A stretch of 64,000 bases of DNA from assembly GCA_903862655.1 (NCBI GenBank), contig CAIOZA010000019.1, positions 6,960-70,959 of the forward strand, read 5' to 3'. The position numbers and the translations under genes are program-made. Positions within the stretch are counted from its first letter, which is position 1; every line of letters begins with the position of its first letter. The notes under the pieces are model-generated. The model saw only the letters and a program-made list of their open reading frames with translations. It had not been told where the DNA came from and did no database searches. The DNA is from an uncultured Ignavibacteria bacterium (GTDB lineage Bacteria; Bacteroidota; Ignavibacteria; Kapaibacteriales; UBA2268). Positions 4,265-64,000 of the stretch are shown one piece after another.

Positions 4265-4269
4265 AAATC

Positions 4270-4869: not shown

Positions 4870-4922
4870 ATTATCCTCCTGACTGCAAATTTACGTGGAA
4901 TTAATTTAAAATCAAGCTAAAA

Positions 4923-7900: not shown

Positions 7901-8135
7901 CATCAAGATTAATTCTGGATTTCCAAAAATATTCCCATCTCTGGAATTGCTTCCAACCCTTTTTGCCCTTATTTTCGGGAGCAGTCCAATATGTGTTGAA
8001 ATTATTTTTCATGTCAAAGAAATTTAGATTTTCTGTTGATTTGAATTCGATAGCAGGCTGGGCGAAAGATTGGTTTACCAAAAACAAAGGTAAAAAAATC
8101 ATTACAATCAAATATTTAAGACAAGAAGTATGCAT
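4923..8135 (-). CDS. Secreted BNR/Asp-box repeat beta-propeller protein (sortilin/GH74-like) with Cys-paired Ig-like repeats and a T9SS C-terminal sorting domain
   Basis: Signal peptide. Multiple S-x-D-x-G-x-(T/S)-W Asp-box repeats (DGGQSW, DGGKSW, DAGETW, DGGKTW, DGGTTW, DGGSLW). Two repeats with the pattern CEGDS..L......YQWSTG. C-terminal Por_Secre_tail-like segment ending ...GIYWIKIYINDQIIIRKLIKR. Confidence 0.7.
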   Translation of the reverse strand: MHTSCLKYLIVMIFLPLFLVNQSFAQPAIEFKSTENLNFFDMKNNFNTYWTAPENKGKKGWKQFQRWEYFWKSRINLDGSFPNGIELWNEYQNYQNKFNQLTQGNDKIWSQTGPFKNPSDGNNQGGIGRINVVKIKPNAAKEIWIGSAAGGVWQSKDYGQSWKVFPFTQILSMGISDIAFSESNPNVAYVATGDCDGTGTTYSTYSVGVLKTTDGGQSWATTSFSFGPGNGKIVSKVVVLPSNPDLVIACTNDGIYKSIDGGKSWRNKVVQSAYFRDIKIKRDDPNIILASTYNGNGNAAIFRSEDAGETWVQTKVLAGITRTCIDFAYGNTDLVYLLCATGSYFHSIQVSADGGKTWAIKSSLSGGTPNIMGSGQGTGNDKYYGQAWYDLALAVSPADDEVLYAGGINIWGSSDGGTTWRMTTHWYGGYSKPYVHADIHYLTFDLEDGYLLCGSDGGLDYATNPENKWINLNKGLSISQMYRVASAQTYPGFAYTGCQDNGTFRVKDGVWSQAYGGDGMDCVVNQLDYNKAIVSMQNGDFLRTVNGSSFGEVLNSSITQENGGWITPIVMNPINPNTIYTGYTNVWRSVDGGSLWKKLGSLAIGTLQRLAISPADTNTIYASNGSSIMVTYNNGGLWQAISNIPGSVQQIEVDPNNAKRIFIVIGGFSEGKKVYEYNGTSWKNLSGNMPNFPVNTIVFQKNSPDRLYVGTDIGVFYSDYSSGYWEPYGLGMPTVICSDLKIDYKGGKLICGTYGRGLWSIDLNTCNLPQPDIQAPSQMRICEGDSVILTALTDASVAWSTGETTKSIIVKTSGTYSFSIIGDGNCVVRSKAVILEKSVIPSLKISPIGKYPLCEGDSINLELSASLGFSSYQWSTGDSTRKIKVKLPGIYKVVTKTSTDCWAQYELEIKINPLPPKPIIDRLSSTELQSSFARTYQWYLNDTLLSSETKRNIIINTLGNYTVQITDSNSCPAKSDPIIITTDVNDPSFVTGISIHPNPTTGEATIAIANIGNSNFRYTVSDLLGIEILSSNGLINDQLFVLNLSEKPTGIYWIKIYINDQIIIRKLIKR

Positions 8136-8164
8136 AATATCCTCTTTAAAGAAGTAAATAATTT

Positions 8165-11389: not shown

Positions 11390-11585
11390 TTTGAAAACTA
11401 TCCTATATTATATATTTTAAAAATATTAAATAATCCGTTTGTAACTTTGTCTTTATTCTAAGAGTAGTTATCGGTTCAAAAAGTTACAAAGTTAATGAAA
11501 ATTCATTAAATTTCACTTATTTAAACTAATAATTTTTATCATATTTTTGTTATTGTAATTATCATTTAGACAGGAAAATTTGTAA

Positions 11586-36011: not shown

Positions 36012-37493
36012 TTAAATTTCAGGATATTTAGGATTATTTGAATGGAGAGGTGAATGATTCCTACAAATATAAGTATTTAAAACTGTTTTAATTGGAATTT
36101 TGACAAGCCGAAATGATCTTGTATTTATATTCATTCTAAGGTAAGTAAAATTTATAACCGACAAAACGAGTCCTATAGGAAGCCAAAAGTTAGGTGAACT
36201 AAAGTTATTGCCAGAAATAAAATTTATAATAATTTGTACGATTATTATATAATATAATAATCTGATTAACCTCTGCTCATATTCACTGAAGTAGCTCAAT
36301 ATTTTTTCATTTTTGGTTAATTTGATCGTTACAACAATTAAGCTAGTAAAAAAAGAAAACAGGAATATAACTCCAATTGTGCCTAATTCCGCCAGAACAG
36401 TAGAAAGAGTAAAATCAGAGAATACTAATTCTGGGTGAATTTTGTTGCAAGAAGTTAAACCCAATCCGATACCTTGAATTGGATAATGCTTCCAGATATC
36501 AATAGATTGTTGATAGGTATTTAATCTTGATCCAAATGACTCACCAAAAACCTGTTTATCGTCATTCCCGGCATTAGTAGCAAAATGAAAGATACCTTCT
36601 ATTCTCTGCTGAAATAATTCGATTACACTTACTCCTACATATTCTGAAAAAAGCAGATCAGCTAGAGTAATAATTACAACAAATGAAAGAATTAATGTTG
36701 AGTATCTAATGATATGTTGTTTTTTTTGAACTACTAGCATACCAGCAAAAATAAGAATTACTCCTACGAATCCTGTCATTGAAAAAGCAAGTAACATCCC
36801 AATAGACGCAAAGACAAGCATAGTAAAAATAATTATTTTACTTTTAAAAAAGTGTTTTTGTTTATTAATAATCGGGACTATTAAAAAAGCCAGCATGTAT
36901 GTATTGAAAGTACCTAAAGCTGATGGTTCAGAGAATATTGAGGTAGCTCTAAAAAAATCACCATAATGAAGACTCAATTGATTGAAAGAATCTACTCCTT
37001 CTTCTGCCGCTCTCGACATGAAACTAACATTATTGTAAACTATCCAAGCCAGGGGTAAATCCAAAGCTCTTGCAATAATCTGGTAAATCCCAAAAATATT
37101 AATAAGTAAACCTAGAATAAGCCATGTTTTAATTACCTTATCCCATTTTGATATATCAATTGGCAAAAAGATGCAAATAATTCCGAATAAAAAGAGTTCA
37201 ATAAAGTGAACAAATGATTTAAAAAATTGGAAAATCATATCGGTCTCGCCATAATATATGGCTGTAGTTGAGGATATAATAATGGAAACAAATAGTCCGA
37301 ATAATATTAAATGAAAGATATTATAGGAATATTTAACTTGAATACCATCCCAAATCAGTTTTTTAAGAGCATATATATAAAAGGCCAGAAGTGCAAAATC
37401 GAGAATAGTTACTCCATATCCACTTATCGAGAAGAATTGAAAGCCTGTAAAAAAGAACCCTATAAATATTATTTGGAGAAGAAATATTTGCAT
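36012..37493 (-). CDS. O-antigen ligase / Wzy-like polytopic membrane protein
   Basis: 493 aa with about 12 predicted TM segments and a large extracytoplasmic loop (...RAAEEGVDSFNQLSLHYGDFFRATSIFSEPSALGTF...) reminiscent of the Wzy_C / O-antigen ligase domain. Confidence 0.55.
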   Translation of the reverse strand: MQIFLLQIIFIGFFFTGFQFFSISGYGVTILDFALLAFYIYALKKLIWDGIQVKYSYNIFHLILFGLFVSIIISSTTAIYYGETDMIFQFFKSFVHFIELFLFGIICIFLPIDISKWDKVIKTWLILGLLINIFGIYQIIARALDLPLAWIVYNNVSFMSRAAEEGVDSFNQLSLHYGDFFRATSIFSEPSALGTFNTYMLAFLIVPIINKQKHFFKSKIIIFTMLVFASIGMLLAFSMTGFVGVILIFAGMLVVQKKQHIIRYSTLILSFVVIITLADLLFSEYVGVSVIELFQQRIEGIFHFATNAGNDDKQVFGESFGSRLNTYQQSIDIWKHYPIQGIGLGLTSCNKIHPELVFSDFTLSTVLAELGTIGVIFLFSFFTSLIVVTIKLTKNEKILSYFSEYEQRLIRLLYYIIIVQIIINFISGNNFSSPNFWLPIGLVLSVINFTYLRMNINTRSFRLVKIPIKTVLNTYICRNHSPLHSNNPKYPEI

Positions 37494-44863: not shown

Positions 44864-46783
44864 ATGACGATGAAGATAATATCTAAATTGAATCTATCGA
44901 TTATTCTCTTTCTAACAGCCATTACAATATACATAATGACTGCCGCACCGGATCTCATGTTTACAGATTCAGGTGAACTCGCCGGTGTATGCGTAACCTT
45001 GGGTATAGCTCACCCAACAGGTTATCCACTATTCGCCATTATCGGACATTTATTTTCTCTTATTCCTATGGGTTTGAGCAAAATATATCAGCTCAATTTA
45101 ATGGCTTCGTTCTTCACGGCACTATCTTCGGTAGTTTTTTTTCAAACATTACTTATTGTTTTTGAATTAGTCAACAAAAAGAAAAATCAGCAGAAAACTA
45201 AGAATAAACAAAGTCAGGTAAATGAATCAAACCTTTTAGAAAATAGAAATATTCTGCTCATTTCTTTTTTCACATCTTTAATATATTCTTTTGCCACAAC
45301 TGTCTGGCAACAAGCTAATGCTATTGAAGTTTATTCATTACAAGCTATGATGTTTAATCTTGTAATCTGGTCAATTTTAAAATCATCCTCAGCCAAAGAA
45401 AATCAATTCAAATTTTATATTTTTACTGAATTTTTATTGGGGTTAAGTTTTACAAACCACATGCAAACAGTCCTGCTGATTCCGGGAGTCCTATATTTAT
45501 ACTTATTCGGTATCGGAGATTCACATAAATTTGATAAGTTAAAATTTAAAGAAATCCTTTGGTTATTTATCCCATTTGTTATTGGATTGAGTCTTATATT
45601 GTATCTTCCTCTGAGAAGTATGTCTATGCCTGATTTTAACTGGGGCTTTGTTTCAAGAGGCTGGAGTAAGTTCATATATCATGCATCTGGCAAGCAATAT
45701 CAGATTTGGATGTTCTCTGATAGTGCCTCCATATCAACAAATCTTGGTAAATTTTTCTCCCTACTTCCTTACCAGCTTGGCTGGATTGGGCTAGTTCCTT
45801 TTTTGCTCGGAATTTACTTTTTATTCAAGCAGAACAGAAAGTTACTTTTCTTTCTTCTAATTTTATTATTCACTTGTCTATCCTATAGTGTTAATTATAG
45901 TATTCATGATATAGATTCATATTTTCTTCTTGCTTTTATTTCGATTATCCTATTAACTGGGACAGGATTATTTTTTGTAATTTCTAAGTATCCAAAATTA
46001 GTTGCAGCAATTGTAATAATTCCAATAATTTCGCTAATACAAAATTTCGATTCAAATGATAATTCTAAAAATTATCTAGTTCCAGAATATAGCAGAATTC
46101 TTGGAGATAACCTTGAACCAAATGCTATTATTATTTCAGCTCAATGGGATTACTGGTGTTCTGCTTTTTGGTACAAGCAGAAAGTTGAAGGTTACCGACC
46201 TGATGTTGTTCTTCTTGAAAAGGAATTGTTACGTAGAACATGGTATCTAGAGCAATTCAAGAAATGGTACCCAGCAACAGCTAAAACAGTTGAGAATGAA
46301 GTAAATTTGTATCTGGGACAACTTGAATTATTCGAATCTGAGAAGGAGTATAATCCTGTCCTGATTCAGCAGTATTATGTAGGACTAATAAATGCTTTGA
46401 TAGACAAGAACTTTGGTAAAAGACCAATTTATGTTACCATTGATGTGGTAGAGAATCCTACAGATGCAGACATTGCTTCAAAATATCAAAAAATCCCACA
46501 GGGTTTTGCATTTCGACTCGAGAAAGATAATAAAATTTACCAACCTAATCTCGACAAAATTGATATTTCTAAATTCCTTGAATTCAAAAAAGACAGAAAT
46601 AATCATCTTGTAGAGGGCATTTTGAGTGTTGCATCATTAAACGTTACAAACATTGGTCGCTATGCCCAAGCAACGAATAATACAGTAACAGCACGTAAGT
46701 CCTATGAAATGGCTCTGAAGATTGATCGGTCGAATCAAAATGCGCAAATGGGGTTGCAGCAGTTATCGAATATCAGGCAATAG
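44864..46783 (+). CDS. DUF2723 / TMEM260-like polytopic membrane protein (GT-C-fold glycosyltransferase-like) with C-terminal TPR region
   Basis: N-terminal loop APDLMFTDSGELAGVCVTLGIAHPTGYPLFAI is the hallmark of the DUF2723 family (acidic DxGE loop after TM1, then GIAHPxGYPL). About 11 TM helices, then a soluble ~240-aa C-terminal domain. Confidence 0.7.
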   Translation: MTMKIISKLNLSIILFLTAITIYIMTAAPDLMFTDSGELAGVCVTLGIAHPTGYPLFAIIGHLFSLIPMGLSKIYQLNLMASFFTALSSVVFFQTLLIVFELVNKKKNQQKTKNKQSQVNESNLLENRNILLISFFTSLIYSFATTVWQQANAIEVYSLQAMMFNLVIWSILKSSSAKENQFKFYIFTEFLLGLSFTNHMQTVLLIPGVLYLYLFGIGDSHKFDKLKFKEILWLFIPFVIGLSLILYLPLRSMSMPDFNWGFVSRGWSKFIYHASGKQYQIWMFSDSASISTNLGKFFSLLPYQLGWIGLVPFLLGIYFLFKQNRKLLFFLLILLFTCLSYSVNYSIHDIDSYFLLAFISIILLTGTGLFFVISKYPKLVAAIVIIPIISLIQNFDSNDNSKNYLVPEYSRILGDNLEPNAIIISAQWDYWCSAFWYKQKVEGYRPDVVLLEKELLRRTWYLEQFKKWYPATAKTVENEVNLYLGQLELFESEKEYNPVLIQQYYVGLINALIDKNFGKRPIYVTIDVVENPTDADIASKYQKIPQGFAFRLEKDNKIYQPNLDKIDISKFLEFKKDRNNHLVEGILSVASLNVTNIGRYAQATNNTVTARKSYEMALKIDRSNQNAQMGLQQLSNIRQ

Positions 46784-47438
46784 CCAAGCAGGCACAATCT
46801 ACACGTCTTGCTCCTGCTTCGAGAAGTATTGAAGCACAAGCGTTAATAGTTGATCCTGTTGTTAGAACATCATCAACAACCAAATAATTTTTAAGTTTAA
46901 GATCATTTTTTTTTCTTGAAAGCTCAAAAACATCGATGACATTGCTCTGTCGTTCATTCTTGCTCAATTGCGTTTGTGTCTGTGTGTATTTATTTCTTTT
47001 AACTAAAGTTTGAACGGGCACATTTAATTCTTTTGATATAGCTTTTGATATAATTTCAGCCTGATTAAATCCTCTTTCTCGCTTTTTAGCCGAGTGAAGA
47101 GGCACAGGCACAATAGCTGAATAAGAAACGTCAGTATTTTTTATTAGCTCTTTTCCAAGAGTTGAACTGAACTCTTTTCCCACTTTAGTGAATCCAAAAT
47201 ATTTGAGTCCATGAATGATCTGGAGAAAATCTTTTTCATCGTGAACAGAAAATAAGCCATAAACTTTAGAAATAGCGATAGAATCTTTATCAAAGTTTTG
47301 AATAAATCTATCAAATGCTTGATCCACCGTAGGTGGTGATGGAAGAAGAAATTCACATTTTCTGCAAATATGTGAGTAATTCCCTCTTGAATTTTCAATT
47401 AAACAGCCACAAACCTGACAAACAGCAGGTGCCATCAT
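46773..47438 (-). CDS. comF: ComF-family protein (phosphoribosyltransferase domain, competence/GntX-like)
   Basis: N-terminal zinc-finger Cys pairs (CQVCGCL...CRKCEF) and a C-terminal PRTase motif (YLVVDDVLTTGSTI). The start is taken at the internal Met (MMAPAVCQVCG) because the longer ORF to 47552 would overlap the doxX-like gene. Confidence 0.7.
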   Translation of the reverse strand: MMAPAVCQVCGCLIENSRGNYSHICRKCEFLLPSPPTVDQAFDRFIQNFDKDSIAISKVYGLFSVHDEKDFLQIIHGLKYFGFTKVGKEFSSTLGKELIKNTDVSYSAIVPVPLHSAKKRERGFNQAEIISKAISKELNVPVQTLVKRNKYTQTQTQLSKNERQSNVIDVFELSRKKNDLKLKNYLVVDDVLTTGSTINACASILLEAGARRVDCACLAIA

Positions 47439-47464
47439 CTCAAATATAGAGTCCAATATAATTT

Positions 47465-47938
47465 TTACTGGATTGAAGTTTTTTCCAAATTTTTCTGATT
47501 TATATTTTCTACAGAAAATTTCTGCACAGGAAAAAGAAATATATATAAGCACCCAATGAACATCATGGTATTCTCTATAATCTTAGGCCATCCTACTAAT
47601 ACAATTTTTCCGGTAAAACAACCACAGTTAATATTTAATCCCCTTACCATAGCTGAGAAAACGGCAACGATAAAAATTAGCATCAATCCTCCGGTAATCA
47701 TAGCATTTGCTTTTATTCTTACTCCTGCAATAAGTAGAATTCCGACAACAAGTTCAATCCAAGGCATTGCTAACGCCATAACATTAACTATCGATACCGG
47801 CATAATGCTATAATTCATAATTTCTTTTGCAAAAAAAGCAGGATCAGCAGCTTTCCCAAGTCCTGCTAATATAAACAGAAATCCGATTACCAGTCTAACA
47901 ATTAAACTCAGATATTGATTTTCAAATATTTTTTGCAT
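47465..47938 (-). CDS. DoxX/MauE-family membrane protein
   Basis: Four TM helices; LAGLGK motif in the first helix and a conserved C-terminal CGCF motif. Confidence 0.7.
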   Translation of the reverse strand: MQKIFENQYLSLIVRLVIGFLFILAGLGKAADPAFFAKEIMNYSIMPVSIVNVMALAMPWIELVVGILLIAGVRIKANAMITGGLMLIFIVAVFSAMVRGLNINCGCFTGKIVLVGWPKIIENTMMFIGCLYIFLFPVQKFSVENINQKNLEKTSIQ

Positions 47939-52063: not shown

Positions 52064-53668
52064 GTGAAATTTCGCCAAAATCATATTTCTCAATACTTAT
52101 TAATCATTCTTACCACATCCATCATACCTTTGATGGTACTTTTTTTCTATCCGGATAAGATCGTAAATCTTTTCTATAATGATGCATTCTACTATTTTAC
52201 AATAGCGACTAATTATCTTCATAAAGGTGTTTTCTCATTTGATGGAATAAATCCCACCAATGGATTCCATCCTCTTTGGCAAATAATTACTATAGTGCTA
52301 TTTAAAATAGCATCAAATAGTGACTTTAAGATTATTCTTACATTGTTGGTTTGTATTGTTCTTACATCATCAGCAAATATTCTTTTTTTCAGTTCTGCTT
52401 ATAAAATAACTAAGTCTAAACTTTTAGCATTTATAACAATCATTCCCGGATATTTTTATTTAATTTTTGGACTTGCAATTGGTAAGCACTATTCAATCAT
52501 ATCTCCTGTAAATGGCATGGAGACTTCTATTTCGTTATTTTTATTTTCTTTGCTCCTGTACTTTTTAATAAGATGTTCCGAAGGAAAGCAGTTTTATAGA
52601 TTTAAATATTACACTATTTCTTTGCTAGTTTCATTGCTTTTTCTGAGTAGACTGGATGAAATATTTATTATTTACACATTACTTTTGTATGTCTTCTTCA
52701 GTTCGGATAAATCGAATAGATTATTGAATTCGATTAAGTTTTTAGTCTTTCCTATTCTAATGATATCCGGATATTTAATTTATAATCAATTATCAACTGG
52801 TATGCTCTTACCTGTTAGCGGATTGCAGAAATCAGGGTTTTCATTTGATAATGTTGTGCATATTATCCGTGGACTATTCTTAGGACGTTCTTTTAATTAT
52901 TTCTGGGGAGAGCATTTGTATTCAAGAATTCTACCCATTGTTTATGTATTAATTGCTACTGGCTTTTTCCTAGTATTATTTTTTAAAAAGTCATTTAACA
53001 AAAATAATTCTCTTATTGCTCCACTTGCATACATTGCGATGGCTTCAATATTAAAATTAACCTATCATATATTCTTTACTAATCTCTGGGATCAGGGACA
53101 ATGGTACTACAATATTGACATAATAACTAGTAATATTATTGTTGCTTATTTTATCATTACAAGGTATCCATCAATTTTGAAAATAAAGTACATAAGCATT
53201 TACTCAGCTATTTTGATATTATGTGTGTTATTTTGGAATGCATTCGCGAATTTGACAACTGAAACCAGAAATGAAATGTTATGGAGAAATAGAGAAAAAA
53301 TCAAAAATGAAATCATCAAAATAGATAAATTCCCAAAAATAATTGAAATGGATGACGGGATAGTTACTTATGCCTTGGGATTTCGGGCATTATCTGGTTT
53401 TGGGTTATGTATGGATAAAGAAGCATTCAAAGCAAAAAATTCTGGAAAGTTATTTGACCTAGCATATAAAAGAGGATATAGGTACATAGCGTCGTTAAAT
53501 TATTTTAAAAATCCTGATAATATTCCAAATACATTGAATAATTATAAGGATTTTGTTTCAATCCCATTTTTTGCATTAGAAAAACAAGACCTTGATTTTT
53601 GGCAATTTCAGTCAATCTACTCTAACAATTTAACAGGATTTGTACTAATAAAATTTGAAAAAAAATAG
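52064..53668 (+). CDS. Hypothetical polytopic membrane protein; candidate GT-C-fold glycosyltransferase
   Basis: GTG start. About 11 TM helices in residues 1-390, with a short acidic/aromatic first external loop (NLFYNDAFYYFTIA) right after TM1. Followed by a ~145-aa soluble C-terminal domain. This is the general layout of GT-C enzymes. No specific family recognised by eye. Confidence 0.5.
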   Translation: MKFRQNHISQYLLIILTTSIIPLMVLFFYPDKIVNLFYNDAFYYFTIATNYLHKGVFSFDGINPTNGFHPLWQIITIVLFKIASNSDFKIILTLLVCIVLTSSANILFFSSAYKITKSKLLAFITIIPGYFYLIFGLAIGKHYSIISPVNGMETSISLFLFSLLLYFLIRCSEGKQFYRFKYYTISLLVSLLFLSRLDEIFIIYTLLLYVFFSSDKSNRLLNSIKFLVFPILMISGYLIYNQLSTGMLLPVSGLQKSGFSFDNVVHIIRGLFLGRSFNYFWGEHLYSRILPIVYVLIATGFFLVLFFKKSFNKNNSLIAPLAYIAMASILKLTYHIFFTNLWDQGQWYYNIDIITSNIIVAYFIITRYPSILKIKYISIYSAILILCVLFWNAFANLTTETRNEMLWRNREKIKNEIIKIDKFPKIIEMDDGIVTYALGFRALSGFGLCMDKEAFKAKNSGKLFDLAYKRGYRYIASLNYFKNPDNIPNTLNNYKDFVSIPFFALEKQDLDFWQFQSIYSNNLTGFVLIKFEKK

Positions 53669-56434: not shown

Positions 56435-57183
56435 TGAAACTGAAACTACACGTATGGAGACAGAAGTACGGCAAATCAAAGGGTTATTTCGAACAGCATG
56501 ATGTTGATTATGTTTCGGAAGATATGTCATTCCTAGAAATGCTAGATGTTCTTAATGAAAAACTTCTAAAGTCTGCCAAAGAACCTATTGCATTCGATCA
56601 CGACTGCCGCGAAGGTATCTGCGGTTGCTGCTCTCTTACAATCAATGGCAATCCTCACGGACCAGAGAAAGCAACAACAACATGCCAATTGCACATGAGA
56701 AAATTCAAAGATGGCGAAACTGTTTATATCGAACCATTCAGAGCTAAGGCATTCCCTGTAATCAAGGATCTTGTTGTGGACAGGACTTCACTCGACACAA
56801 TCATTCAGTCAGGTGGATTCATTAGCGTCAACACTAATCAACCTCAGGATGCAAATGCACTTCCTGTTGACAAGAAACAGGCTGATCTGGCAATGGATGC
56901 TGCCTCATGTATAGGTTGCGGTGCGTGTGTTGCATCATGCCCCAATAGTGCCGCTATGCTCTTTGTTTCTGCAAAGGTATCTCACATGGGTCTTTTACCT
57001 CAGGGACAACCAGAACGAAAGAAAAGAGTTTTGGCAATGGTAAACACTATGGATGCCGAAGGCTTTGGTACCTGCAGAAACTTCTATGAATGTGAAGCCG
57101 CATGTCCAAAAGAAATTTCGGTACGATTCATTGCGAGGATGAACAGAGATTTTCTGAAGGCTAGTTTGTCAAAGGAAGATTAA
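56434..57183 (+). CDS. sdhB: Succinate dehydrogenase / fumarate reductase iron-sulfur subunit
   Basis: 2Fe-2S ([10 protein letters not shown]), 4Fe-4S ([12 protein letters not shown]) and 3Fe-4S ([12 protein letters not shown]) Cys motifs. Confidence 0.9.
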
Positions 57184-57214
57184 TTCCAGTTTAAATATAT
57201 TTTTTATTTATAAG

Positions 57215-57240
57215 GTGGCTTCAAATGCCACCTTTTTTTG
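57215..57240 (+). terminator. Rho-independent terminator of the sdhCAB operon
   Basis: GGTGGC-TTCAAAT-GCCACC followed by TTTTTTTG. Confidence 0.7.
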
Positions 57241-57266
57241 TGCGACATCTATAACAAATGTAATAA

Positions 57267-58172
57267 TTAGCTACTAAATACACCTTCTTTTCCTGATTTT
57301 ATTTTAGGCAAAAGGATCCCACCGATTATTAATATTAAACCAAAGAATGTTGACTCTAGAATACTTTCTCCTATTACCAAACTGATAAAAAATAAAGATA
57401 AAAAAGGAGACAAATAGACGAAAGCACTAACCTTTGCCGTATTTTCTGATAAACTTAATGCTCTAAGCCAAAAGACAAATGTTAGCCCCATCTCAAACAG
57501 GCCGATATAAAATGAACCAATTATTCCCGAAAAACTAAAATTTTGTAAGAATAAATCCCCATTAATTAAAACTAAAATTAAACAAAAAATAAAACCAAAA
57601 AAAAAGCTCAGAAATAGTTTAAGAGTGCCATCCTGTTTCATTTTTAAATTAAGTATCCAGAATGTTGACCAGATTAGAGAACTAGAAACAGCGAGAATTG
57701 TTCCTAATAAATTATTAAATTTTAATGCAAATAAATCTCCTTTTGTTCCAATTAATACAACTCCGAAAAAACTTAAAATCAGACCAATAAGAGTAAGCGC
57801 ATTTATCTTTTGTTTTAAAAATACTGCAGAGAATATCACTATGCTCATTATCCATGTGTAATTTAGAGTCAGTGCTTCCTGAGCAGGTAATAGTTCGTAA
57901 GCTCTAAATAACACGAGATAATAGAGAAATGGGTTCAGAAACCCAATCAACGCAAATACTAAAATATCCTTGAAATTCAATTCTTTGAATAACTTAATCT
58001 TACCTGTAAAGATAAGAATAAAAAGTAAAGCAACAGATGCTATAAAAGAAGATTGGAGAAGAAGATGAGTTGAATTTAATTCATTAAGTGAGAGCTTAAA
58101 AGCTGTAGCTACTGTTGACCATAAACAGACTGAGATCAATGCATAAACATAAGCTTTATTGCTGTTATTCAT
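57267..58172 (-). CDS. EamA/DMT-superfamily transporter, last gene of the polyprenyl-P-arabinose operon
   Basis: 301 aa, 10 TM helices, duplicated EamA halves. Starts 7 nt after the stop of the dprE2-like gene on the same strand. Confidence 0.8.
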   Translation of the reverse strand: MNNSNKAYVYALISVCLWSTVATAFKLSLNELNSTHLLLQSSFIASVALLFILIFTGKIKLFKELNFKDILVFALIGFLNPFLYYLVLFRAYELLPAQEALTLNYTWIMSIVIFSAVFLKQKINALTLIGLILSFFGVVLIGTKGDLFALKFNNLLGTILAVSSSLIWSTFWILNLKMKQDGTLKLFLSFFFGFIFCLILVLINGDLFLQNFSFSGIIGSFYIGLFEMGLTFVFWLRALSLSENTAKVSAFVYLSPFLSLFFISLVIGESILESTFFGLILIIGGILLPKIKSGKEGVFSS

Positions 58173-58179
58173 ACTTAAC

Positions 58180-58914
58180 CTAGAGATTCATTTTTTTAAA
58201 TATTGCTTCAGGAATATGCATAACTATAAACATTACTATTCTCCAAAAACCAGGAACGTAAGCTATGTCCTTTTTTTTCTCTATAGCATTAAAAATATGT
58301 TTACCGACAATTTCCGATGATGAAAATAATGGATTCTTTGGGATATCAGCTGTCATTGGAGAATCAACAAGACCAGGTTTAATTGTAATAATTGTTACTC
58401 CAGTTCCGGACAAACGATTTCTTAATCCTTGTAGGAAAATTGATAATCCCCCTTTTGCTGAGCCATATATATAATTACTCTTTCGTCCTCTATCCCCTGC
58501 TACAGATGTTATAACAGCTAGAATTCCTGAATTTCTCTTTTCAAAATATTCAGCAAATATTGAACTCAAAGTAGCAGCTGAAATAAAATTTATACTTAAT
58601 TGCTTTTGTATTTCGTTTGGCTTATTTAATATATCCTCTTGATTAGGTAATGTCCCGTATGCAATAAACGCTACATCGAAATTTCCAAAATCCTGTATAA
58701 TTTTTTCAAAAAGTTGTTCCTGCATATTAATATTTGAAATCTCCCATTCAAAAATTGAAGGAAGTACACCAGTCGCAACAAAAATATCATTCTTAACAGA
58801 TTCAAGTCTGTTAAAATTAATATCAACCAGTAAAACTTCAAGGTCTTTTTTAGCAAACTGCTTTATCGTTGCGACTGCGATTGCTGAGGTTCCGCCTATA
58901 ACTACTAACTTCAT
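58180..58914 (-). CDS. dprE2: DprE2 homologue: short-chain dehydrogenase/reductase, decaprenylphospho-2'-keto-D-erythro-pentofuranose 2'-reductase family
   Basis: Collinear match to mycobacterial DprE2 (Rv3791) over the full length: VVIGGTSAIAVAT vs LLLGGTSEIGLAI; FDVAFIAYGTLPN vs VDVAIVAFGLLGD; YGSAKGGLSIF vs YGSTKAGLDGF; C-terminus WRIVMFIVMHIPEAIFKK vs FRYVMMVLRHIPRSIFRK. Confidence 0.8.
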   Translation of the reverse strand: MKLVVIGGTSAIAVATIKQFAKKDLEVLLVDINFNRLESVKNDIFVATGVLPSIFEWEISNINMQEQLFEKIIQDFGNFDVAFIAYGTLPNQEDILNKPNEIQKQLSINFISAATLSSIFAEYFEKRNSGILAVITSVAGDRGRKSNYIYGSAKGGLSIFLQGLRNRLSGTGVTIITIKPGLVDSPMTADIPKNPLFSSSEIVGKHIFNAIEKKKDIAYVPGFWRIVMFIVMHIPEAIFKKMNL

Positions 58915-58927
58915 AGTTTAACTTTCA

Positions 58928-60229
58928 TTAATTATTTACTCTTCTCCAAAAAGAAGATGAAAATTTTGGATCAATATATTTTGAGAATTCTTTTACTTCG
59001 GGATAGAAGTGCATAAAATCAGATCCTGACATTCTGGAATCCTTTGCTGGATAGATCACTCCCCTATGTTCCTTAACAATGTCATCTAATGAAGTTAGAA
59101 AATCAAGAGTTCGTTTACCAGTCATCCTGAAATCGATAGCCAGAGTAATACCAGGTCTGGGGAATGATAACATCCCAGGTGATTTAATGTTACCGAATGT
59201 TTTTAAAACTGTCAGGAAAGAAGATAAGCCAGAATGATTAATCCTGGTGAGAATCTCTTTGAGTGCTTCTTTACCATTATTAAATGGTAAAACAAACTGA
59301 TATTGAATGAAACCATTTTTACCATAAGCATTATTCCATTTTCCTACAGCATCTAATGGATAGAAGAATGGCTCGTAATGAATTAATGAATTTAATTTTT
59401 TGTCAAATTGTTTTTGATAATACAGAACATTAAATAGATTAACACTGAGCTCATTTATGAAACTGGATTTGAATGGAAAATCAATTGAATGTTTAGTGTT
59501 GGCATACTTTGGTCCTGATTTTGCAAAATTCCCACTGGAATAAATACCTCTTCCTGATCTGGTTCCGGTTGATGTGCAATCAATCCATGAGACAGTAAAA
59601 TCATTTGTTAGATTGGCAAAATCATTAATTTCAAAGAAATCATTCAAACAATCAAATTTAACAAATTCAGCATCAATCATGCTGGAGTCTATTCTAAATA
59701 ATTTAATTTCAGCCCAGGTGATGATTCCCGTTAATCCAAGTCCACCTATTGTTGCTCTGAATAATTCCTGATTCTCGGAGTTGCTGCAAATTAATCTTTC
59801 ATTAGTAGATCTTAGCAATTCGAAGCAATTTACATGGCAACCGAAGGTACCCATTTTATGATGGTTTTTTCCATGTACATCATTAGCAATTGCTCCTCCT
59901 AATGTTACGAATTTTGTGCCGGGAGTAACAGCAAGAAAAAATCCTTTAGGTACAATTAATTTCAATATTTCATCAAGTGATACTCCTGCTTCAGCTCTTA
60001 GAACACCTTTATCCCAATCAACTGAGATAAATTTGTTCAAACCAGAACAATCGACTAATGTCCCATTTGAATTAAGACAGCTATCACCATAACTACGGCC
60101 TAAACCGAAGGGCAATACATTTCCGATTACGGTTGCTAAATCAGGAGCTTCGTTTATCCAACTATAATTAATGACTTGTTGATATTCAGGGGTCGGATAC
60201 TTACCCCATGATTCATAAATACTTTTCAT
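58928..60229 (-). CDS. dprE1: DprE1 homologue: FAD-dependent decaprenylphospho-beta-D-ribofuranose 2'-oxidase family
   Basis: [11 protein letters not shown] vs Mtb DprE1 [34 protein letters not shown] vs [37 protein letters not shown] vs FWATVGGNGLTGII; C-terminal [25 protein letters not shown] vs (R)[24 protein letters not shown]. Confidence 0.85.
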   Translation of the reverse strand: [433 protein letters not shown]

Positions 60230-60232
60230 AGA

Positions 60233-61690
60233 TTATAAACTCAAAAACAAAAATACAATCATTAGAAGACCCATAAGATAACTCATTTTGTCCTTTGCAG
60301 TGAATACAATAGGATCATTATGCATTTCGCCACGGAAAGTCAGAAGCCACATTCTAGATATCCAGAGTAAAAGAACAAGACCGACAGGTAAAAGTAACTC
60401 AGGTTTCGAGTATAATCTTGTAATCTCAGGACTAAAAATGTATAACATGAAAACCAGAGTTGAGAGATAGCCACTTGTAATTCCCAATGGGAGTAAAAAG
60501 CTCAAATCATTGGTTTGATAACCTCGGCCATCAGTTCTTTGTTCACTGATTTCCTTTAGCGAATAAAGCTCCTGATATCGTTTTATAATTGCCAAACTTA
60601 AAAACAGAAAAATAGAAAAAGCAATCAACCATTTTGAAATTCCTACATTGGAAGTAATTCCGCCTGCTATCAATCTTATTGTATAAAGCAGGGAGAGTAC
60701 CATTATATCGATCAGAATTATTTTTTTTAAGCGAAATGAATATAAGGTTGTTAGCAGGAAATAAATCAGTAGTAAAAGTGAAAAATTATTAGGTAAAAAA
60801 TTAAGAGATAAAAACCAACCTATTATGAATAATACTTTGGCCACAATAAAAACAAGAATTGGATTAAGATTTCCTGAAGCTAATGGCCGACTTTTCTTTA
60901 TAATATTCTTTCTGTCTGATTCAAGATCCACCAAATCATTAATAATATAGACAAAAGATGCAATGAATGAAAAGCTTACAAATCCAATAACATTATTAAA
61001 AATAGAATTGAAATTCTTTATATCATGAGCAAGCAAGAAAGGCAAAAAAATTAGAATATTTTTTATCCACTGATATACTCTAAGCTCCTTGAAAATCTGA
61101 GATAATGAATTTTGCTTTTCATCTGAGTAAATAAAATCAACATTGCCACTTACTTTAATTACTTTATTTTTTAATGATGGAGATGGATTTACCAGATAAC
61201 TTTTTCTACAGCTTTCAAATACTGGCAAATCAGCCGTGCTATCTCCAATATAATCATATCCTTTATGTCCAAATAATTCTTCAAGTTTTCTAGCTTTATT
61301 GTTTGCTCTGTTATTATGATCTCTTTTACTAAAAATGACCTCGTCGAATATTGGTAGATACTCTGATACAGATTTAGCAATATTCTCAGTTGTAGCCGTA
61401 CTTAGAACAATTTTTCTGCCGATTGCCTTATTTTTATTTAATAAGCTTATAACATCAGAATTATAAGGGAATAAGGAAGCATTTAGTTTGGAATGATCAG
61501 TTACAAAATTCTTTAAATGATTCTTTCCTTTTAGAATAAGGAAAGGAATAACAAAGATATTGAATATATTAGATTTAATACATAAAATAGTGGATTCAAA
61601 TATACTATCAATTTTTATAAGAGAGCCATCAAGATCTGTTACCAATGGTATAGATATATCATGACTATTTGTATTATTTATCTGATTCAT
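60233..61690 (-). CDS. Fusion protein: N-terminal HAD-IB-like phosphatase domain plus C-terminal UbiA-family polyprenyl-phosphate 5-phosphoribosyltransferase (DPPR synthase-like)
   Basis: N-terminus has HAD motif I LVTDLDGSL, motif II LSTAT, motif III K...KARKLEELFG and motif IV GDSTADLPV. After a linker, an 8-9 TM UbiA domain with NDLVDLESDRKN (NDxxDxxxD) and a second D-rich region (HNDPIVFTAKDK). Start and stop overlap the neighbouring genes. Confidence 0.8.
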   Translation of the reverse strand: MNQINNTNSHDISIPLVTDLDGSLIKIDSIFESTILCIKSNIFNIFVIPFLILKGKNHLKNFVTDHSKLNASLFPYNSDVISLLNKNKAIGRKIVLSTATTENIAKSVSEYLPIFDEVIFSKRDHNNRANNKARKLEELFGHKGYDYIGDSTADLPVFESCRKSYLVNPSPSLKNKVIKVSGNVDFIYSDEKQNSLSQIFKELRVYQWIKNILIFLPFLLAHDIKNFNSIFNNVIGFVSFSFIASFVYIINDLVDLESDRKNIIKKSRPLASGNLNPILVFIVAKVLFIIGWFLSLNFLPNNFSLLLLIYFLLTTLYSFRLKKIILIDIMVLSLLYTIRLIAGGITSNVGISKWLIAFSIFLFLSLAIIKRYQELYSLKEISEQRTDGRGYQTNDLSFLLPLGITSGYLSTLVFMLYIFSPEITRLYSKPELLLPVGLVLLLWISRMWLLTFRGEMHNDPIVFTAKDKMSYLMGLLMIVFLFLSL

Positions 61691-62823
61691 ATGGTAGTTG
61701 CTATTTTTTTGTCAAATATCTGTAAAGCTACACCAATTACTTGATCCATATTGTAATATTTATAATCTGCAAGTCTCCCAGCAAAAATAACACTTCCGTT
61801 TAATTTGTCAATTTCATTTAAATACTGTTTAAATATTATTTCATTTTCAGGTTTAGGTATTGGATAATAAGGATCATTTTGACCAGGTATGTGGGCCAAA
61901 GAAAACTCCTTTGCTATTACTGTCTTACTAATATCTTTAATTTGGTTTCTATAGAAATGTTTAAACTCGGTGATTCTTGTAAAATCATAGTTATTAGGGT
62001 AATTTACCTGAGATACTTCCTGAAAACTTTCTAGGTTGAATGATTCTAGTTCAAATCTAAGACTTCTATATGGAAGTTGACCATGCACATAGTCAAAAAA
62101 GGAATCAATTGGACCAGTAAAAATAAGCTTATTAAACTTAATATTATTTATATCTGATTTAAATTCAGTGTTGAGCCTAAGTTCAATATTAGGATGATTG
62201 AGCAATTTTTCAAATATTGAAGAATATCCTTCTTTTGGTAATCCCTGATAAATATCCTGAAAGTATCTGTCATCTCGACTAATATTGACAGGAATTCTTG
62301 AAGTTACTGAATGATCCAGTTCTTCTGGTTTGAATTCCCATTGCTTTAAAGTATATCCCAAGAAGATATTTTTATATATGTAATCGGCGAGATAGCTTAA
62401 TTCAGAATTTTGGGAATCCTTAAGCTTTAGAATTGGAATCTTTGTGCCAAAACCATAGGTATTAATTAAAATTTCTTCTAATTTTGAAGCATAATGATTT
62501 GGGAAAACCATGTAAAGTGAGTTCAAATTAAACGGTACAGGAATCTTTAAACCCTCCACAGCTGCCAGGACCTTGTGAAAGTATAATTCCCAGTCAGTAA
62601 ATTGAGATAGATATTCCCAGACTTTGTGATTACTAGTATGAAATATATGAGGCCCATATTTATGAATTAGAATTCCATTAACATCTTTGTAATCGTAGCA
62701 ATTACCACCAAAGTGCTCCCTTTTGTCAATAACAAGTACTTTTTTATTAAGCTGATTTGCTATTCGCTCTGCAAGGACTGAACCGGCCAATCCCGCCCCT
62801 ACTATTAGATAATCATAGTTCAT
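61687..62823 (-). CDS. glf: UDP-galactopyranose mutase
   Basis: MNYDYLIVGAGLAGSVLAERIA...KVLVIDKREHFGGNCYD...IHKYGPHIFHT...YEYNGR-type UGM motifs throughout; 378 aa. Confidence 0.95.
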   Translation of the reverse strand: MNYDYLIVGAGLAGSVLAERIANQLNKKVLVIDKREHFGGNCYDYKDVNGILIHKYGPHIFHTSNHKVWEYLSQFTDWELYFHKVLAAVEGLKIPVPFNLNSLYMVFPNHYASKLEEILINTYGFGTKIPILKLKDSQNSELSYLADYIYKNIFLGYTLKQWEFKPEELDHSVTSRIPVNISRDDRYFQDIYQGLPKEGYSSIFEKLLNHPNIELRLNTEFKSDINNIKFNKLIFTGPIDSFFDYVHGQLPYRSLRFELESFNLESFQEVSQVNYPNNYDFTRITEFKHFYRNQIKDISKTVIAKEFSLAHIPGQNDPYYPIPKPENEIIFKQYLNEIDKLNGSVIFAGRLADYKYYNMDQVIGVALQIFDKKIATTI

Positions 62824-64000
62824 TTTCTAATATAACCTTTAATTTCTTCAACTGACGTTATTTTAAAAAGAAAAATAAATCCTCCAAATAATATAAAAGA
62901 CGCAATAGAAGAAATTATCTCATGAATTTTGAAATAATGATTCAATCCATATCCTCCCAAGCACGAGATGGCTGATATTGCAATACCTTTGAGCAAAGTC
63001 AAAAGAAAAGTAATATTGATTTCGTTTTTGATAATCCTAACCAACCCAAGGAATACCATAAATTCGCTAACAACTGTAGACCAAGCAGCACCAACAGCTC
63101 CATACTTAGGAATCAGAATGAAATTCAGTATGATATTGACTATTGCTCCTGCTCCAATTGCATACATTACTATTTTTTCTTTTTTCCAGGCTACAAGTGG
63201 TGGATAATAGGCTGTATTCATATACATAATTAATACAGTAAGCATCAGAACTTGCAGAACTATTATTGAATCTGTATAATTGCTACCAAAAGCAAATGTA
63301 ATGAAAAAAGATGAAAAAGTAAAAAACAGAAAAGAAAGAAAAGTACCAACATAAAATATAGCCTTAGAATAATTTCTTAAGGCATTTCTTTTTTCATCAA
63401 TAGATTGAGCCCTGGAAACATGCGGAAAAAATGCTAAATTTAATATATAAGATGGAGCAATTACTAATCCAACAAACCTAAATGCTGCAGCATAGATGCC
63501 GGTTTCAGCATCAGACTTCATAAAACCAAGCATTATAATATTCAATGAATTATAAATAGTAATGAAAAAGCTTGAAAACATTATTGGAATTGATGAGGTA
63601 AGAAGTTCTTTCATCATTGACTTATCGATATATAACCTGAGTTTTCCATATATTTTGTTGTATAGAGCCAGCATCCAGATAGCATTGAGTAATGTCGAGA
63701 TTACAGTAATAATCATAGCTGTGACAACATCTGAAGCAGTTTTAACAAGGAAAAGCACACCTATCAAATTCAAAGAGCTTGTCAGAACCTGTCGGATAGC
63801 TAGGATTCCCATTTTTTCGGTACCCTGATAAACCCAATCCATCATTATAGCCTGTGAAAATAAATTCACACCGGAAATAATTATCACAAGTTTTACTTCA
63901 AATGGTTTATCAATTAGCACGGCAAAGATAACCATAGCTACACAGGAGAAGATTGCGAGGATTAATCTATAAGTTGTTATCTGATCGGCGTATTTTTTTA
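62820..64000 (-). CDS. wzx: Wzx-like polysaccharide flippase (MOP superfamily), partial; the N-terminus lies beyond the window
   Basis: Polytopic membrane protein with the MOP/PST flippase arrangement. The reading frame stays open to the window edge (upstream residues ...KKYADQITTYRLILAIFSCVAMV...). Its stop overlaps the glf start (ATGA). Confidence 0.7.
   Translation of the reverse strand, partial: KKYADQITTYRLILAIFSCVAMVIFAVLIDKPFEVKLVIIISGVNLFSQAIMMDWVYQGTEKMGILAIRQVLTSSLNLIGVLFLVKTASDVVTAMIITVISTLLNAIWMLALYNKIYGKLRLYIDKSMMKELLTSSIPIMFSSFFITIYNSLNIIMLGFMKSDAETGIYAAAFRFVGLVIAPSYILNLAFFPHVSRAQSIDEKRNALRNYSKAIFYVGTFLSFLFFTFSSFFITFAFGSNYTDSIIVLQVLMLTVLIMYMNTAYYPPLVAWKKEKIVMYAIGAGAIVNIILNFILIPKYGAVGAAWSTVVSEFMVFLGLVRIIKNEINITFLLTLLKGIAISAISCLGGYGLNHYFKIHEIISSIASFILFGGFIFLFKITSVEEIKGYIRK

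Follow-up and report, generated by a model that had tools for sequence, protein, structure and literature searches.

A HAD phosphatase-UbiA transferase fusion beside DprE1 and DprE2 homologues in an uncultured FCB-group bacterium, probably starting arabinofuranose donor synthesis

Described systems for lipid-linked pentofuranoses

Proteins that join a HAD phosphatase to a UbiA-fold transferase are already known as a widespread curated family, and both activities were shown biochemically in 2024 for ORF15 of the C. youngae O1 locus (AWU66546.1, PRP-PPPRS) (Kelly et al., PNAS 2024, PMC11127046). This enzyme converts PRPP and farnesyl-P to farnesyl-P-Ribf; in its D18A variant farnesyl-P-ribose-5-P builds up, identifying the HAD aspartate as the residue that removes the 5-phosphate (PMC11127046). 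Some dephosphorylated product is still formed by D18A (PMC11127046), and the phosphatase step is therefore partly redundant in vivo. In the UbiA domain, activity is almost abolished by changes at N247, D248 or D255, and is severely reduced in D251A (PMC11127046). In the three-component system proposed for periplasmic pentofuranosylation, ORF15 comes first, a role that we likewise propose for the protein described here, but its product serves as a source of Ribf in O1 and, once an SDR epimerase is added, of Xylf in O2. The published family spans Ribf, Xylf and Araf variants, and its DprE1/E2 homologues are linked with Araf-containing glycans; Kelly and colleagues had themselves pointed out DprE1/E2-containing versions of the fusion for arabinofuranose (PMC11127046).

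In the DPA pathway of M. tuberculosis (Rv3806c, Rv3807c, DprE1, DprE2), the chemistry is like that predicted here at each step, whereas the 5-phosphate is removed by a separate membrane PAP2 protein, Rv3807c, and not by a fused cytoplasmic HAD domain; Kelly and colleagues describe Rv3807c as an unrelated phosphatase for the same step (PMC11127046). The two also differ in the carrier (decaprenyl-P in mycobacteria, probably undecaprenyl-P here) and in the transporter (GtrA-like Rv3789 versus a candidate of the EamA type). Gram-negative versions of the pathway, in which a UbiA transferase and DprE1/DprE2 homologues are used in the decoration of surface or secreted molecules, are known from P. aeruginosa PA7/Pa5196 (D-Araf on pilin) and from the rhizobial noeC(N)HOP genes (Nod-factor arabinosylation). 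In P. aeruginosa, transferase and phosphatase are two unfused proteins, the latter from another family (PMC11127046). Rhizobium sp. IRBG74 carries a separate candidate phosphatase gene, noeN, in contrast to the fused HAD domain studied here, and deletion of noeN in rhizobia reduces arabinosylation without abolishing it (PMC5080398). Yet another arrangement occurs on the Lactococcus cremoris plasmid pF27D, where a transferase gene is followed by a HAD-IB phosphatase gene and then by GtrA, all as separate genes. Unlike the locus described below, this arrangement is devoid of DprE1/E2 genes, and ribofuranose is thus presumably its final sugar.

Architecture of the fusion protein

The window, by which we mean the whole stretch of 64,000 nucleotides analysed, comes from an uncultured FCB-group bacterium of low GC content (about 33%), whereas ORF15 is from an enterobacterium. 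It carries a gene starting with ATG that very probably encodes a HAD phosphatase fused to the membrane phosphoribosyltransferase that starts lipid-linked arabinofuranose donor synthesis (Table 1). In NCBIfam profile searches, the protein is matched end to end by NF006088/PRK08238 (539.6 bits for a curated cut-off of 351; residues 6-483 on model positions 4-478 of 482), and its AlphaFold2 model shows two domains with high confidence (pLDDT 93.8, pTM 0.89). Together with the motifs, this upholds an earlier sequence-only reading of the locus, according to which a HAD domain is fused to a UbiA domain resembling DPPR synthase. As the fusion family is curated and both of its activities were published in 2024, the window protein is an ordinary further member of it. 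That reading also had the domains fused in pathway order, which turned out to be wrong: the phosphatase acts second yet is N-terminal, as in ORF15, and the domain order thus reverses the reaction order. The gene order of the operon follows the pathway, but the order of the domains inside the polypeptide does not.

Table 1. Features of the fusion gene and of the surrounding operon; functions are predicted.
Feature	Coordinates	Strand	Remarks
Wzx/Polysacc_synt-type flippase	62820..64000	(-)	first of six-gene block; 5' part beyond window end
UDP-galactopyranose mutase Glf	61687..62823	(-)	378 aa; TIGR00031 and Pfam GLF
Fusion gene: HAD phosphoribose 5-phosphatase (N-terminal) and UbiA-fold polyprenyl-phosphate 5-phosphoribosyltransferase (C-terminal)	60233..61690	(-)	485 aa
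HAD domain	61127..61651	(-)	residues ~14-188; motif conservation, model, Foldseek, partial Pfam PF12710 and TIGR01490 matches
HAD motif I DLDGS	61622..61636	(-)	residues 19-23; coordinates checked by translation
HAD motif II T98 (S-T98-A)	61394..61402	(-)	coordinates checked by translation
HAD motif III K132	61295..61297	(-)	coordinates checked by translation
HAD motif IV GDSTAD	61229..61246	(-)	residues 149-154; coordinates checked by translation
UbiA-fold phosphoribosyltransferase domain	60236..61114	(-)	residues ~193-485; about 9 TM helices
Asp-rich motif NDLVDLESDR	60911..60940	(-)	residues 251-260, UbiA domain
KRYQE motif	60569..60583	(-)	residues 370-374, UbiA domain
DprE1-like FAD-dependent oxidase	58928..60229	(-)	433 aa; predicted polyprenyl-P-ribose 2'-oxidase
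DprE2-like short-chain dehydrogenase	58180..58914	(-)	244 aa; predicted 2'-keto reductase, to polyprenyl-P-arabinofuranose
EamA/DMT transporter	57267..58172	(-)	301 aa; two EamA repeats, ~10 TM; last operon gene

The N-terminal domain had been said to retain all four HAD motifs, and translation confirms each of them. In an alignment of 119 sequences with 40-84% identity to the window fusion protein, the catalytic residues are conserved throughout (D19 and D21 in 118/118 each, T/S98, K132 and D154 in 119/119 each), position 150 being D or N. The catalytic aspartates, whose loss among orthologues would have spoken against a phosphatase, are thus conserved in all orthologues examined, and at the level of the sequence the motifs are no chance occurrence. 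D19 takes the place of D18 in ORF15, the two proteins being compared via published residue numbers and their shared architecture. In the AlphaFold2 model, the domain adopts a C1-capped HAD fold with a Rossmann-like core, whose alpha-helical cap is inserted between motifs I and II, a stretch of about 75 residues of which most are in helices. Its Foldseek neighbours are SerB/PSP structures and other HAD phosphatases (E 1e-4 to 1e-3, probability 1.00), which speaks against a HAD-like fold of non-phosphatase type, another objection that had been foreseen. Family models give lower scores: Pfam PF12710 matches residues 76-158 with 22.3 bits (E 2e-4), short of its gathering score of 27 bits, and TIGR01490 reaches 27.6 bits (cut-off 98.3), in both cases with the C-terminal half of the model alone. 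We therefore base the HAD assignment on motifs, fold and profile comparison. Searches of PDB chain sequences with the N-terminal domain, either as a single sequence or as a 24-sequence profile, gave marginal HAD matches only, and no solved PRP domain was recovered by them.

The C-terminal domain is matched by Pfam UbiA over residues 230-450 (E 2e-18). Its best phmmer match in the PDB is M. tuberculosis Rv3806c (8j8j, E 1e-28), to which the domain is also structurally similar (8j8j_A in Foldseek: TM 0.83 on the target, 28% identity). Eight residues (N251, D252, D255, D259, R260, K370, R371, E374) are identical throughout the alignment (119/119). The first four show the same spacing as N247/D248/D251/D255 of ORF15, which form its NDxxDxxxD motif in cytoplasmic loop II, as do R371/E374 with respect to R366/E369 in the loop IV RxxE of that protein. 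Scores against the decaprenyl-phosphate phosphoribosyltransferase models stay below cut-off (NF008977, 139 bits vs 234; NF008978, 130 bits vs 207), these NCBIfam equivalog cut-offs, like those for DprE1 and DprE2, being trained on actinobacterial enzymes; by this measure the window transferase is a homologue and not an equivalog of the decaprenyl-phosphate enzyme. Rv3806c binds PRPP on the cytoplasmic side, in a cleft outside the membrane (PMC10994848), and a soluble N-terminal domain preceding TM1 would face this same cytoplasmic side as the PRPP site.

The six-gene operon and related loci

The fusion belongs to a block of six tightly packed or overlapping genes, in the order Wzx-like flippase, Glf, fusion, DprE1-like, DprE2-like and EamA transporter; the coordinates place the Glf stop over the start of the fusion gene. 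Glf is recognised by TIGR00031 (434.8 bits, cut-off 303.75) and by Pfam GLF (E 2e-71). In the Wzx gene, the Pfam Polysacc_synt match begins at profile position 97. An N-terminal truncation of the encoded protein (371 aa) was considered and rejected: the reading frame runs on without a stop as far as base 64000, and locus L081 has an orthologue of 469 aa. Within 57000..64000, promoters and terminators were predicted no more often than in shuffled sequence, apart from one terminator-like hairpin (57212..57234) past the convergent sdhB.

The setting in the DPA pathway, which the sequence-only reading had claimed, is supported by the two genes directly downstream, whose products find their best solved-structure matches in DprE1 and DprE2 of mycobacteria. 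The DprE1-like protein has mycobacterial DprE1 as best PDB match (4aut, E 1e-69) and keeps the Lys equivalent to Mtb K418, although Cys387, the benzothiazinone (BTZ) target in M. tuberculosis, is replaced by Ala. DprE2 (21gq_C, E 2e-28) is the sole PDB match of the DprE2-like protein at E<=1e-10. Both score below the equivalog cut-offs mentioned above (NF053785, 346.7 bits for a cut-off of 500; NF053786, 174 bits for a cut-off of 250), and PRK07102 gives 254 bits (cut-off 267) with the DprE2-like protein.

The EamA gene (Pfam EamA, E 1e-34) probably encodes the candidate flippase for polyprenyl-P-pentofuranose. Small DMT/EamA-type transporters are present in both this locus and that of ORF15, where ORF14 is described as ArnE/F-like, but the one in the window is a full-length, two-repeat protein. 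In seven other loci the fusion or DprE2 is directly adjoined by a half-size EamA gene, and half-size EamA or GtrA genes recur beside the cassette elsewhere. The complete six-gene block is also found in a relative whose fusion is 84% identical (P0003, locus L081), with EamA in the same position.

Across related genomes, DprE1 lies immediately 3' of the fusion in 57/80, from many phyla, and is followed by DprE2 in 53/80. The fusion-DprE1-DprE2 cassette occurs in at least 57 species-level genomes of Pseudomonadota, Acidobacteriota, Bacteroidota, Nitrospirota, Chlorobiota and others. The remaining 23 of the 80 related loci are without DprE1/E2, some of them with an NAD-dependent epimerase beside the fusion instead, and in about 20 loci DprE2 is followed by an additional epimerase and by a flavoprotein that resembles amine oxidases. 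These variants, together with the sub-cut-off scores of the DprE1- and DprE2-like proteins and the Ribf and Xylf members of the published family, could be taken to mean that the end product is not arabinofuranose, the DprE1/DprE2-like pair acting on another substrate or towards another product (e.g., a keto-pentose that undergoes further modification), or ribofuranose itself being transferred. We regard this as very improbable, since the mycobacterial enzymes are by far the best solved matches of the pair, the catalytic Lys has been retained, both genes come straight after the fusion in the window and in most genomes, the published survey ties DprE1/E2 homologues to Araf-containing glycans, and the window operon has no extra modifying enzyme. 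In contrast to the Ribf and Xylf systems of C. youngae, the DprE1/DprE2 homologues of the window predict Araf, and a fusion followed by such homologues can serve as a marker of D-arabinofuranose synthesis.

The phosphatase step and the predicted pathway

The HAD domain had been proposed as a non-orthologous replacement of the PAP2 phosphatase. A PAP2 gene immediately upstream would have argued otherwise; Glf and the Wzx-like flippase were found there. The operon and the six-frame translation of the whole 64-kb window gave no PAP2 signature, nor did the sequence up to 10 kb from the fusion at 84 related loci, and jackhmmer seeded with E. coli PgpB and YbjG retrieved no PAP2 from the window or these loci. 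Both E. coli proteins, used as positive controls, were picked up by the relaxed PAP2 pattern; as the search relied on this pattern and two E. coli seeds rather than on a Pfam model, a very divergent PAP2 could escape it. Each of the refuting outcomes named in the sequence-only reading was checked, and each check favoured that reading. The conserved Asp, the HAD phosphatase fold and the adjacent DprE1/DprE2-like genes support the replacement as well, as does the HAD-IB protein of pF27D, which adjoins an unfused transferase and is a remote homologue of the window N-terminal domain (hhalign probability 91%, E 9e-7, 150 columns). This relationship was found by profile comparison alone, BLASTP of the HAD domain against the Lactococcus protein giving no match. 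The survey widens the 2024 description to a cassette present in at least 57 species-level genomes with no PAP2 gene detected nearby, which suggests that arabinofuranose-containing glycans are far commoner outside Actinobacteria than structural data show.

Alternatively, the HAD domain might act on another substrate, such as a soluble sugar phosphate or polyprenyl diphosphate, whose recycling would provide the acceptor, or be a non-catalytic appendage, with an unlinked enzyme performing the 5-dephosphorylation. The family scores under curated cut-offs would fit with this, and so would the partial redundancy seen elsewhere: ORF15 D18A keeps some dephosphorylated product, so that another phosphatase can act, and the noeN deletion only lowers arabinosylation (PMC5080398). 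Against a dead domain, however, stand the four catalytic motifs conserved across 119 homologues, and the farnesyl-P-ribose-5-P that accumulates with ORF15 D18A in vitro identifies the substrate for this architecture. The HAD-IB gene is, moreover, also the immediate neighbour of the unfused transferase in Lactococcus. We therefore find this alternative very improbable and retain phosphoribose 5-phosphatase as the function of the HAD domain.

An aromatic prenyltransferase with a phosphoserine-type phosphatase and no glycan role, as implied by the JGI name of several homologues ('4-hydroxybenzoate polyprenyltransferase/phosphoserine phosphatase') and by weak UbiA/CyoE-type NCBIfam matches (E 1e-5 to 1e-3), is hardly credible and already contradicted by the far better match of the decaprenyl-phosphate phosphoribosyltransferase models (E 1e-40), by Rv3806c as best solved structure, by DprE1/DprE2, Glf and flippases as neighbours, and by the biochemistry of the same architecture in ORF15. 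Public records use this wrong name or 'UbiA family prenyltransferase' for the family, and the main value of the analysis lies in annotation: the family can be named bifunctional polyprenyl-phosphate phosphoribosyltransferase/phosphoribose 5-phosphatase. The window fusion itself overturns nothing and raises no new question.

Taken with the architecture, motif conservation, fold and gene context seen here, the biochemistry of the homologue, from which we adopt both enzymatic steps, suggests that the protein would make polyprenyl-phosphate-beta-D-ribofuranose in two steps at the cytoplasmic face of the inner membrane. The UbiA-fold domain would first move ribose-5-phosphate from PRPP onto polyprenyl phosphate (the Rv3806c reaction), the carrier presumably being undecaprenyl-P. 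The HAD domain, tethered on the cytoplasmic side, would then strip the 5-phosphate with Asp19 as nucleophile and Asp21 as general acid/base, the job of the unrelated PAP2 enzyme Rv3807c in mycobacteria. Oxidation by the DprE1-like and subsequent reduction by the DprE2-like protein at C2' would give polyprenyl-P-D-arabinofuranose, which the EamA transporter probably flips to the periplasm, where a GT-C glycosyltransferase would add arabinofuranose to a putative surface glycan. This acceptor glycan probably contains galactofuranose too, because Glf and the Wzx flippase share the operon. It seems doubtful to us that one can go further and see in the operon a self-contained supply of Galf and Araf for an arabinogalactan-like surface glycan of a Gram-negative FCB-group bacterium, in EamA a new fused form of flippase, and in the fusion the channelling supposed by the sequence-only reading, with a HAD site that would receive the 5-phosphorylated intermediate straight from the UbiA cavity of its own or a neighbouring protomer within a trimer like that of Rv3806c.

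No GT-C of the GT136 type adjoins the fusion cassette in the window. At distances of 3.6 and 10.5 kb there are two GT-C genes, 52064..53668, for which the GT-C fold was shown, and 44864..46783 (PF11028). The former encodes a 534-aa membrane protein that we rejected as the glycosyltransferase of the system: in relatives at 70% and 39% identity its conserved neighbour is sdhCAB rather than the cassette, and a homologue is found near the fusion in only 1/80 loci. A stronger case can be made for a 526-aa protein encoded at 4165..5745 of locus L082, whose counterpart in the window genome would lie past the window end; a homologue of this protein sits between the fusion and DprE1 in locus L006.

The HAD-UbiA fusion and its characterised homologue

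Pfam recognises a UbiA domain in the fusion at residues 230-450 and, below threshold, a HAD match at residues 76-158. The NCBIfam model NF006088/PRK08238, whose 482 positions cover both the HAD and the UbiA halves, is matched end to end (539.6 bits versus a cut-off of 351); the fusion is therefore real and already a curated family. The open reading frame and both databases thus agree with the sequence-only reading that the two domains share one polypeptide, and more than 2,000 homologues, almost all of about 480 residues, were found by database search. The four HAD motifs reported as intact are all present: DLDGS (residues 19-23), T98, K132 and GDSTAD (residues 149-154). In an alignment of 119 homologues (40-84% identity to the query), the catalytic aspartates are conserved: none of the 118 sequences that reach this site lacks D19 or D21. 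T/S98, K132 and D154 are found in 119 of 119, and either D or N occupies position 150. The same alignment shows no variation in the UbiA signature N251-D252-x2-D255-x3-D259-R260 and K370-R371-x2-E374.

The AlphaFold2 model, built with the 119-homologue alignment, is confident (mean pLDDT 93.8, pTM 0.89) and consists of an alpha/beta domain (residues ∼14-188) with a helical insertion between motifs I and II, followed by a short helix and about nine transmembrane helices. Foldseek matches against the PDB separate cleanly between the two domains. The soluble part resembles phosphoserine phosphatases and other HAD phosphatases, in keeping with a phosphatase fold for the N-terminal domain. The membrane part is closest to Mycobacterium tuberculosis Rv3806c (8j8j, TM-score 0.83 on the target, 28% identity), followed by other UbiA-fold enzymes; among solved structures, sequence comparison recovers Rv3806c alone (E 1e-28). 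Rv3806c binds PRPP in a cleft outside the membrane, on its cytoplasmic side (PMC10994848), and by analogy the soluble domain preceding the first helix of the fusion would share that side with the newly formed 5-phosphorylated product.

A homologue, ORF15 of Citrobacter youngae O1, has been characterised by Kelly, Duong, Nothof, Lowary and Whitfield (PNAS 2024, PMC11127046). ORF15 combines an N-terminal HAD "phosphoribose phosphatase" with a C-terminal UbiA-family "polyprenyl phosphoribose synthase", and membranes containing it convert PRPP and farnesyl-P to farnesyl-P-ribofuranose. The 5-phosphate intermediate builds up in the D18A variant, changes at N247, D248 and D255 nearly abolish activity, and D251A reduces it severely; these residues (D18, N247, D248, D251, D255) match D19, N251, D252, D255 and D259 of our fusion position for position. 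The authors describe Rv3807c as a phosphatase that performs the same reaction but is unrelated, note that the HAD domain is missing from the transferases of mycobacteria and P. aeruginosa, and attribute arabinofuranose (Araf)-containing glycans to systems with DprE1/E2 homologues. Given this biochemistry, the earlier interpretation that the HAD domain replaces the PAP2 phosphatase is right and already published, and the fusion adds one more member to a family that is known, curated and biochemically characterised. Channelling of the intermediate and a HAD site that faces the UbiA cavity would be speculative additions to this reading. The domains are not fused in pathway order, as had been suggested, since the second-acting phosphatase comes first in the polypeptide.

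Operon, recurrent neighbours and the phosphatase step

The fusion is the third of six tightly packed genes, separated by gaps of 3-13 bases or overlapping by 4 bases (Table). The same six-gene order, with different flanks, is found in a relative from another metagenome whose fusion is 84% identical. The flippase is listed with 371 residues, but it is not a truncated gene: its frame stays open right up to the end of the window and the orthologue in this relative has 469 residues. The DprE1-like protein finds its best solved match in mycobacterial DprE1 (E 1e-69); it retains the lysine equivalent to M. tuberculosis K418 and carries Ala at the position of Cys387, the covalent benzothiazinone (BTZ) target. 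DprE2 is the sole strong solved match of the DprE2-like protein (E 2e-28).

Relatives of the fusion occur in at least 527 loci from many phyla (one genome per species), of which 80 were kept for neighbourhood counts. A DprE1 homologue lies directly downstream in 57 of these and a DprE2 homologue after it in 53; 23 have no such pair within 10 kb, some of them with an NAD-dependent epimerase adjoining the fusion. Also found repeatedly in the neighbourhood are GtrA proteins, half-size EamA proteins that directly adjoin the cassette, and large multi-helix proteins with no Pfam match.

When the window and 84 related loci were translated in six frames and searched with a relaxed pattern, no PAP2 signature was found; the pattern recovers both positive controls, E. 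coli K-12 PgpB and YbjG, and a very divergent member could escape it. Neither jackhmmer seeded with these two proteins (window and 84 related loci) nor Pfam scans of 27 window proteins gave a PAP2 match. No PAP2 gene was found upstream in the operon or near the fusion in the 84 related loci, and DprE1/E2 downstream without PAP2 is the majority context of the family.

On the Lactococcus cremoris plasmid pF27D, an unfused transferase gene is immediately followed by an annotated HAD-IB phosphatase gene and then by GtrA. Compared with a profile of the fusion's N-terminal domain, the stand-alone HAD-IB protein gives an alignment of 150 columns in which every motif is included (hhalign probability 91%, E 9e-7). 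Judged from sequence, this split pair is independent support for a functional pairing of transferase and phosphatase, and it predicts a lipid-linked ribofuranose donor in Lactococcus.

In about 20 genomes, including Burkholderiales, Xanthomonadales, Methylococcaceae, Chlorobiaceae and Nitrospiraceae, a fixed gene run follows fusion-DprE1-DprE2. It often starts with a multi-helix protein of 577-710 residues that has no Pfam hit, continues with an NAD-dependent epimerase (PF01370), an amine-oxidase-like flavoprotein (PF01593) and GtrA, and in some cases includes an LPG_synthase_TM protein. The extended module, whose product may be a further modified pentofuranose, is absent from the window and is not mentioned in the available part of PMC11127046.

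Features of the window and of compared loci
Feature	Location	Strand	Remark
Wzx/Polysacc_synt flippase	62820..64000	-	operon gene 1, cut by window end
UDP-galactopyranose mutase (Glf)		-	operon gene 2
HAD-UbiA fusion	60233..61690	-	operon gene 3, 485 residues
DprE1-like flavoenzyme	58928..60229	-	operon gene 4
DprE2-like short-chain dehydrogenase		-	operon gene 5
Two-repeat EamA transporter		-	operon gene 6
534-residue, ∼10-helix membrane protein	52064..53668	+	GT-C fold, predicted structure
TMEM260/DUF2723-like GT-C protein	44864..46783	+	PF11028, E 2e-37; among housekeeping genes
Wzy_C/O-antigen-ligase-like protein	36012..37493	-	among housekeeping genes
ComF-like ORF	46773..47552	-	GTG start
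MauE/DoxX membrane-protein ORF	47465..47938	-
Candidate arabinofuranosyltransferase family, ∼526-569 residues, membrane proteins	L006 (Blastocatellia) 11400..13109; L082 (close relative) 4165..5745	+; +
Split transferase/HAD-IB pair	L089 (pF27D) 7013..8730		Gram-positive exopolysaccharide locus, without DprE1/E2
Extended module	L002, L003, L005, L009, L016, L027, L031, L034-L036, L038, L051		about +3.4 to +9 kb from fusion start

Proposed pathway and candidate glycosyltransferases

In the pathway we propose, the UbiA domain would condense PRPP and polyprenyl-P to polyprenyl-P-ribose-5-P and the HAD domain would strip the 5-phosphate, using Asp19 as the nucleophile; both steps have been shown for the homologue. 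The DprE1-like enzyme would then oxidise C2' and the DprE2-like enzyme reduce it, giving polyprenyl-P-arabinofuranose. By its position, the EamA protein is the candidate exporter of this donor, analogous to the ArnE/F-like ORF14 of C. youngae and to the half-size EamA genes that adjoin the cassette elsewhere. A GT-C enzyme would finally move the sugar onto an acceptor.

Two GT-C genes lie in the window. The 534-residue protein has no Pfam or NCBIfam family match; its confident model (pLDDT 90.2, pTM 0.92) retrieves only GT-C enzymes with Foldseek, e.g. DPY19, STT3/PglB, ArnT, AftB and AftA, its distant homologues bear PMT_2, and D40, N66, G67, E153, R196 and D198 are invariant. It was rejected as the enzyme of the cassette because its conserved neighbour is sdhCAB instead, always directly downstream in relatives that share 70% and 39% identity with it, an odd conserved pairing. 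As for the DUF2723-like protein, a plasmid of Chondrinema litorale carries an unfused transferase-DprE1-DprE2 cassette flanked by one gene for a DUF2723 protein and two of the GT39 family, so in Bacteroidota the arabinofuranose donor may serve enzymes of the DUF2723 type; no direct similarity was found between the plasmid's proteins and those of the window. The best candidate, stronger than either of these, is a family of membrane proteins of about 526-569 residues with no above-threshold Pfam match and only a weak match to DUF6020. In the Blastocatellia genome its gene separates the fusion from DprE1, and in the closest relative of the window it encodes 526 residues and lies two genes upstream of the Wzx flippase; its place in the source genome would be past the window end, beyond base 64000.

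Among the remaining genes, the ComF-like phosphoribosyltransferase-domain ORF shares about 90 bases with the 3' end of the MauE/DoxX ORF, and its GTG start may have been mis-assigned by the mechanical ORF call.
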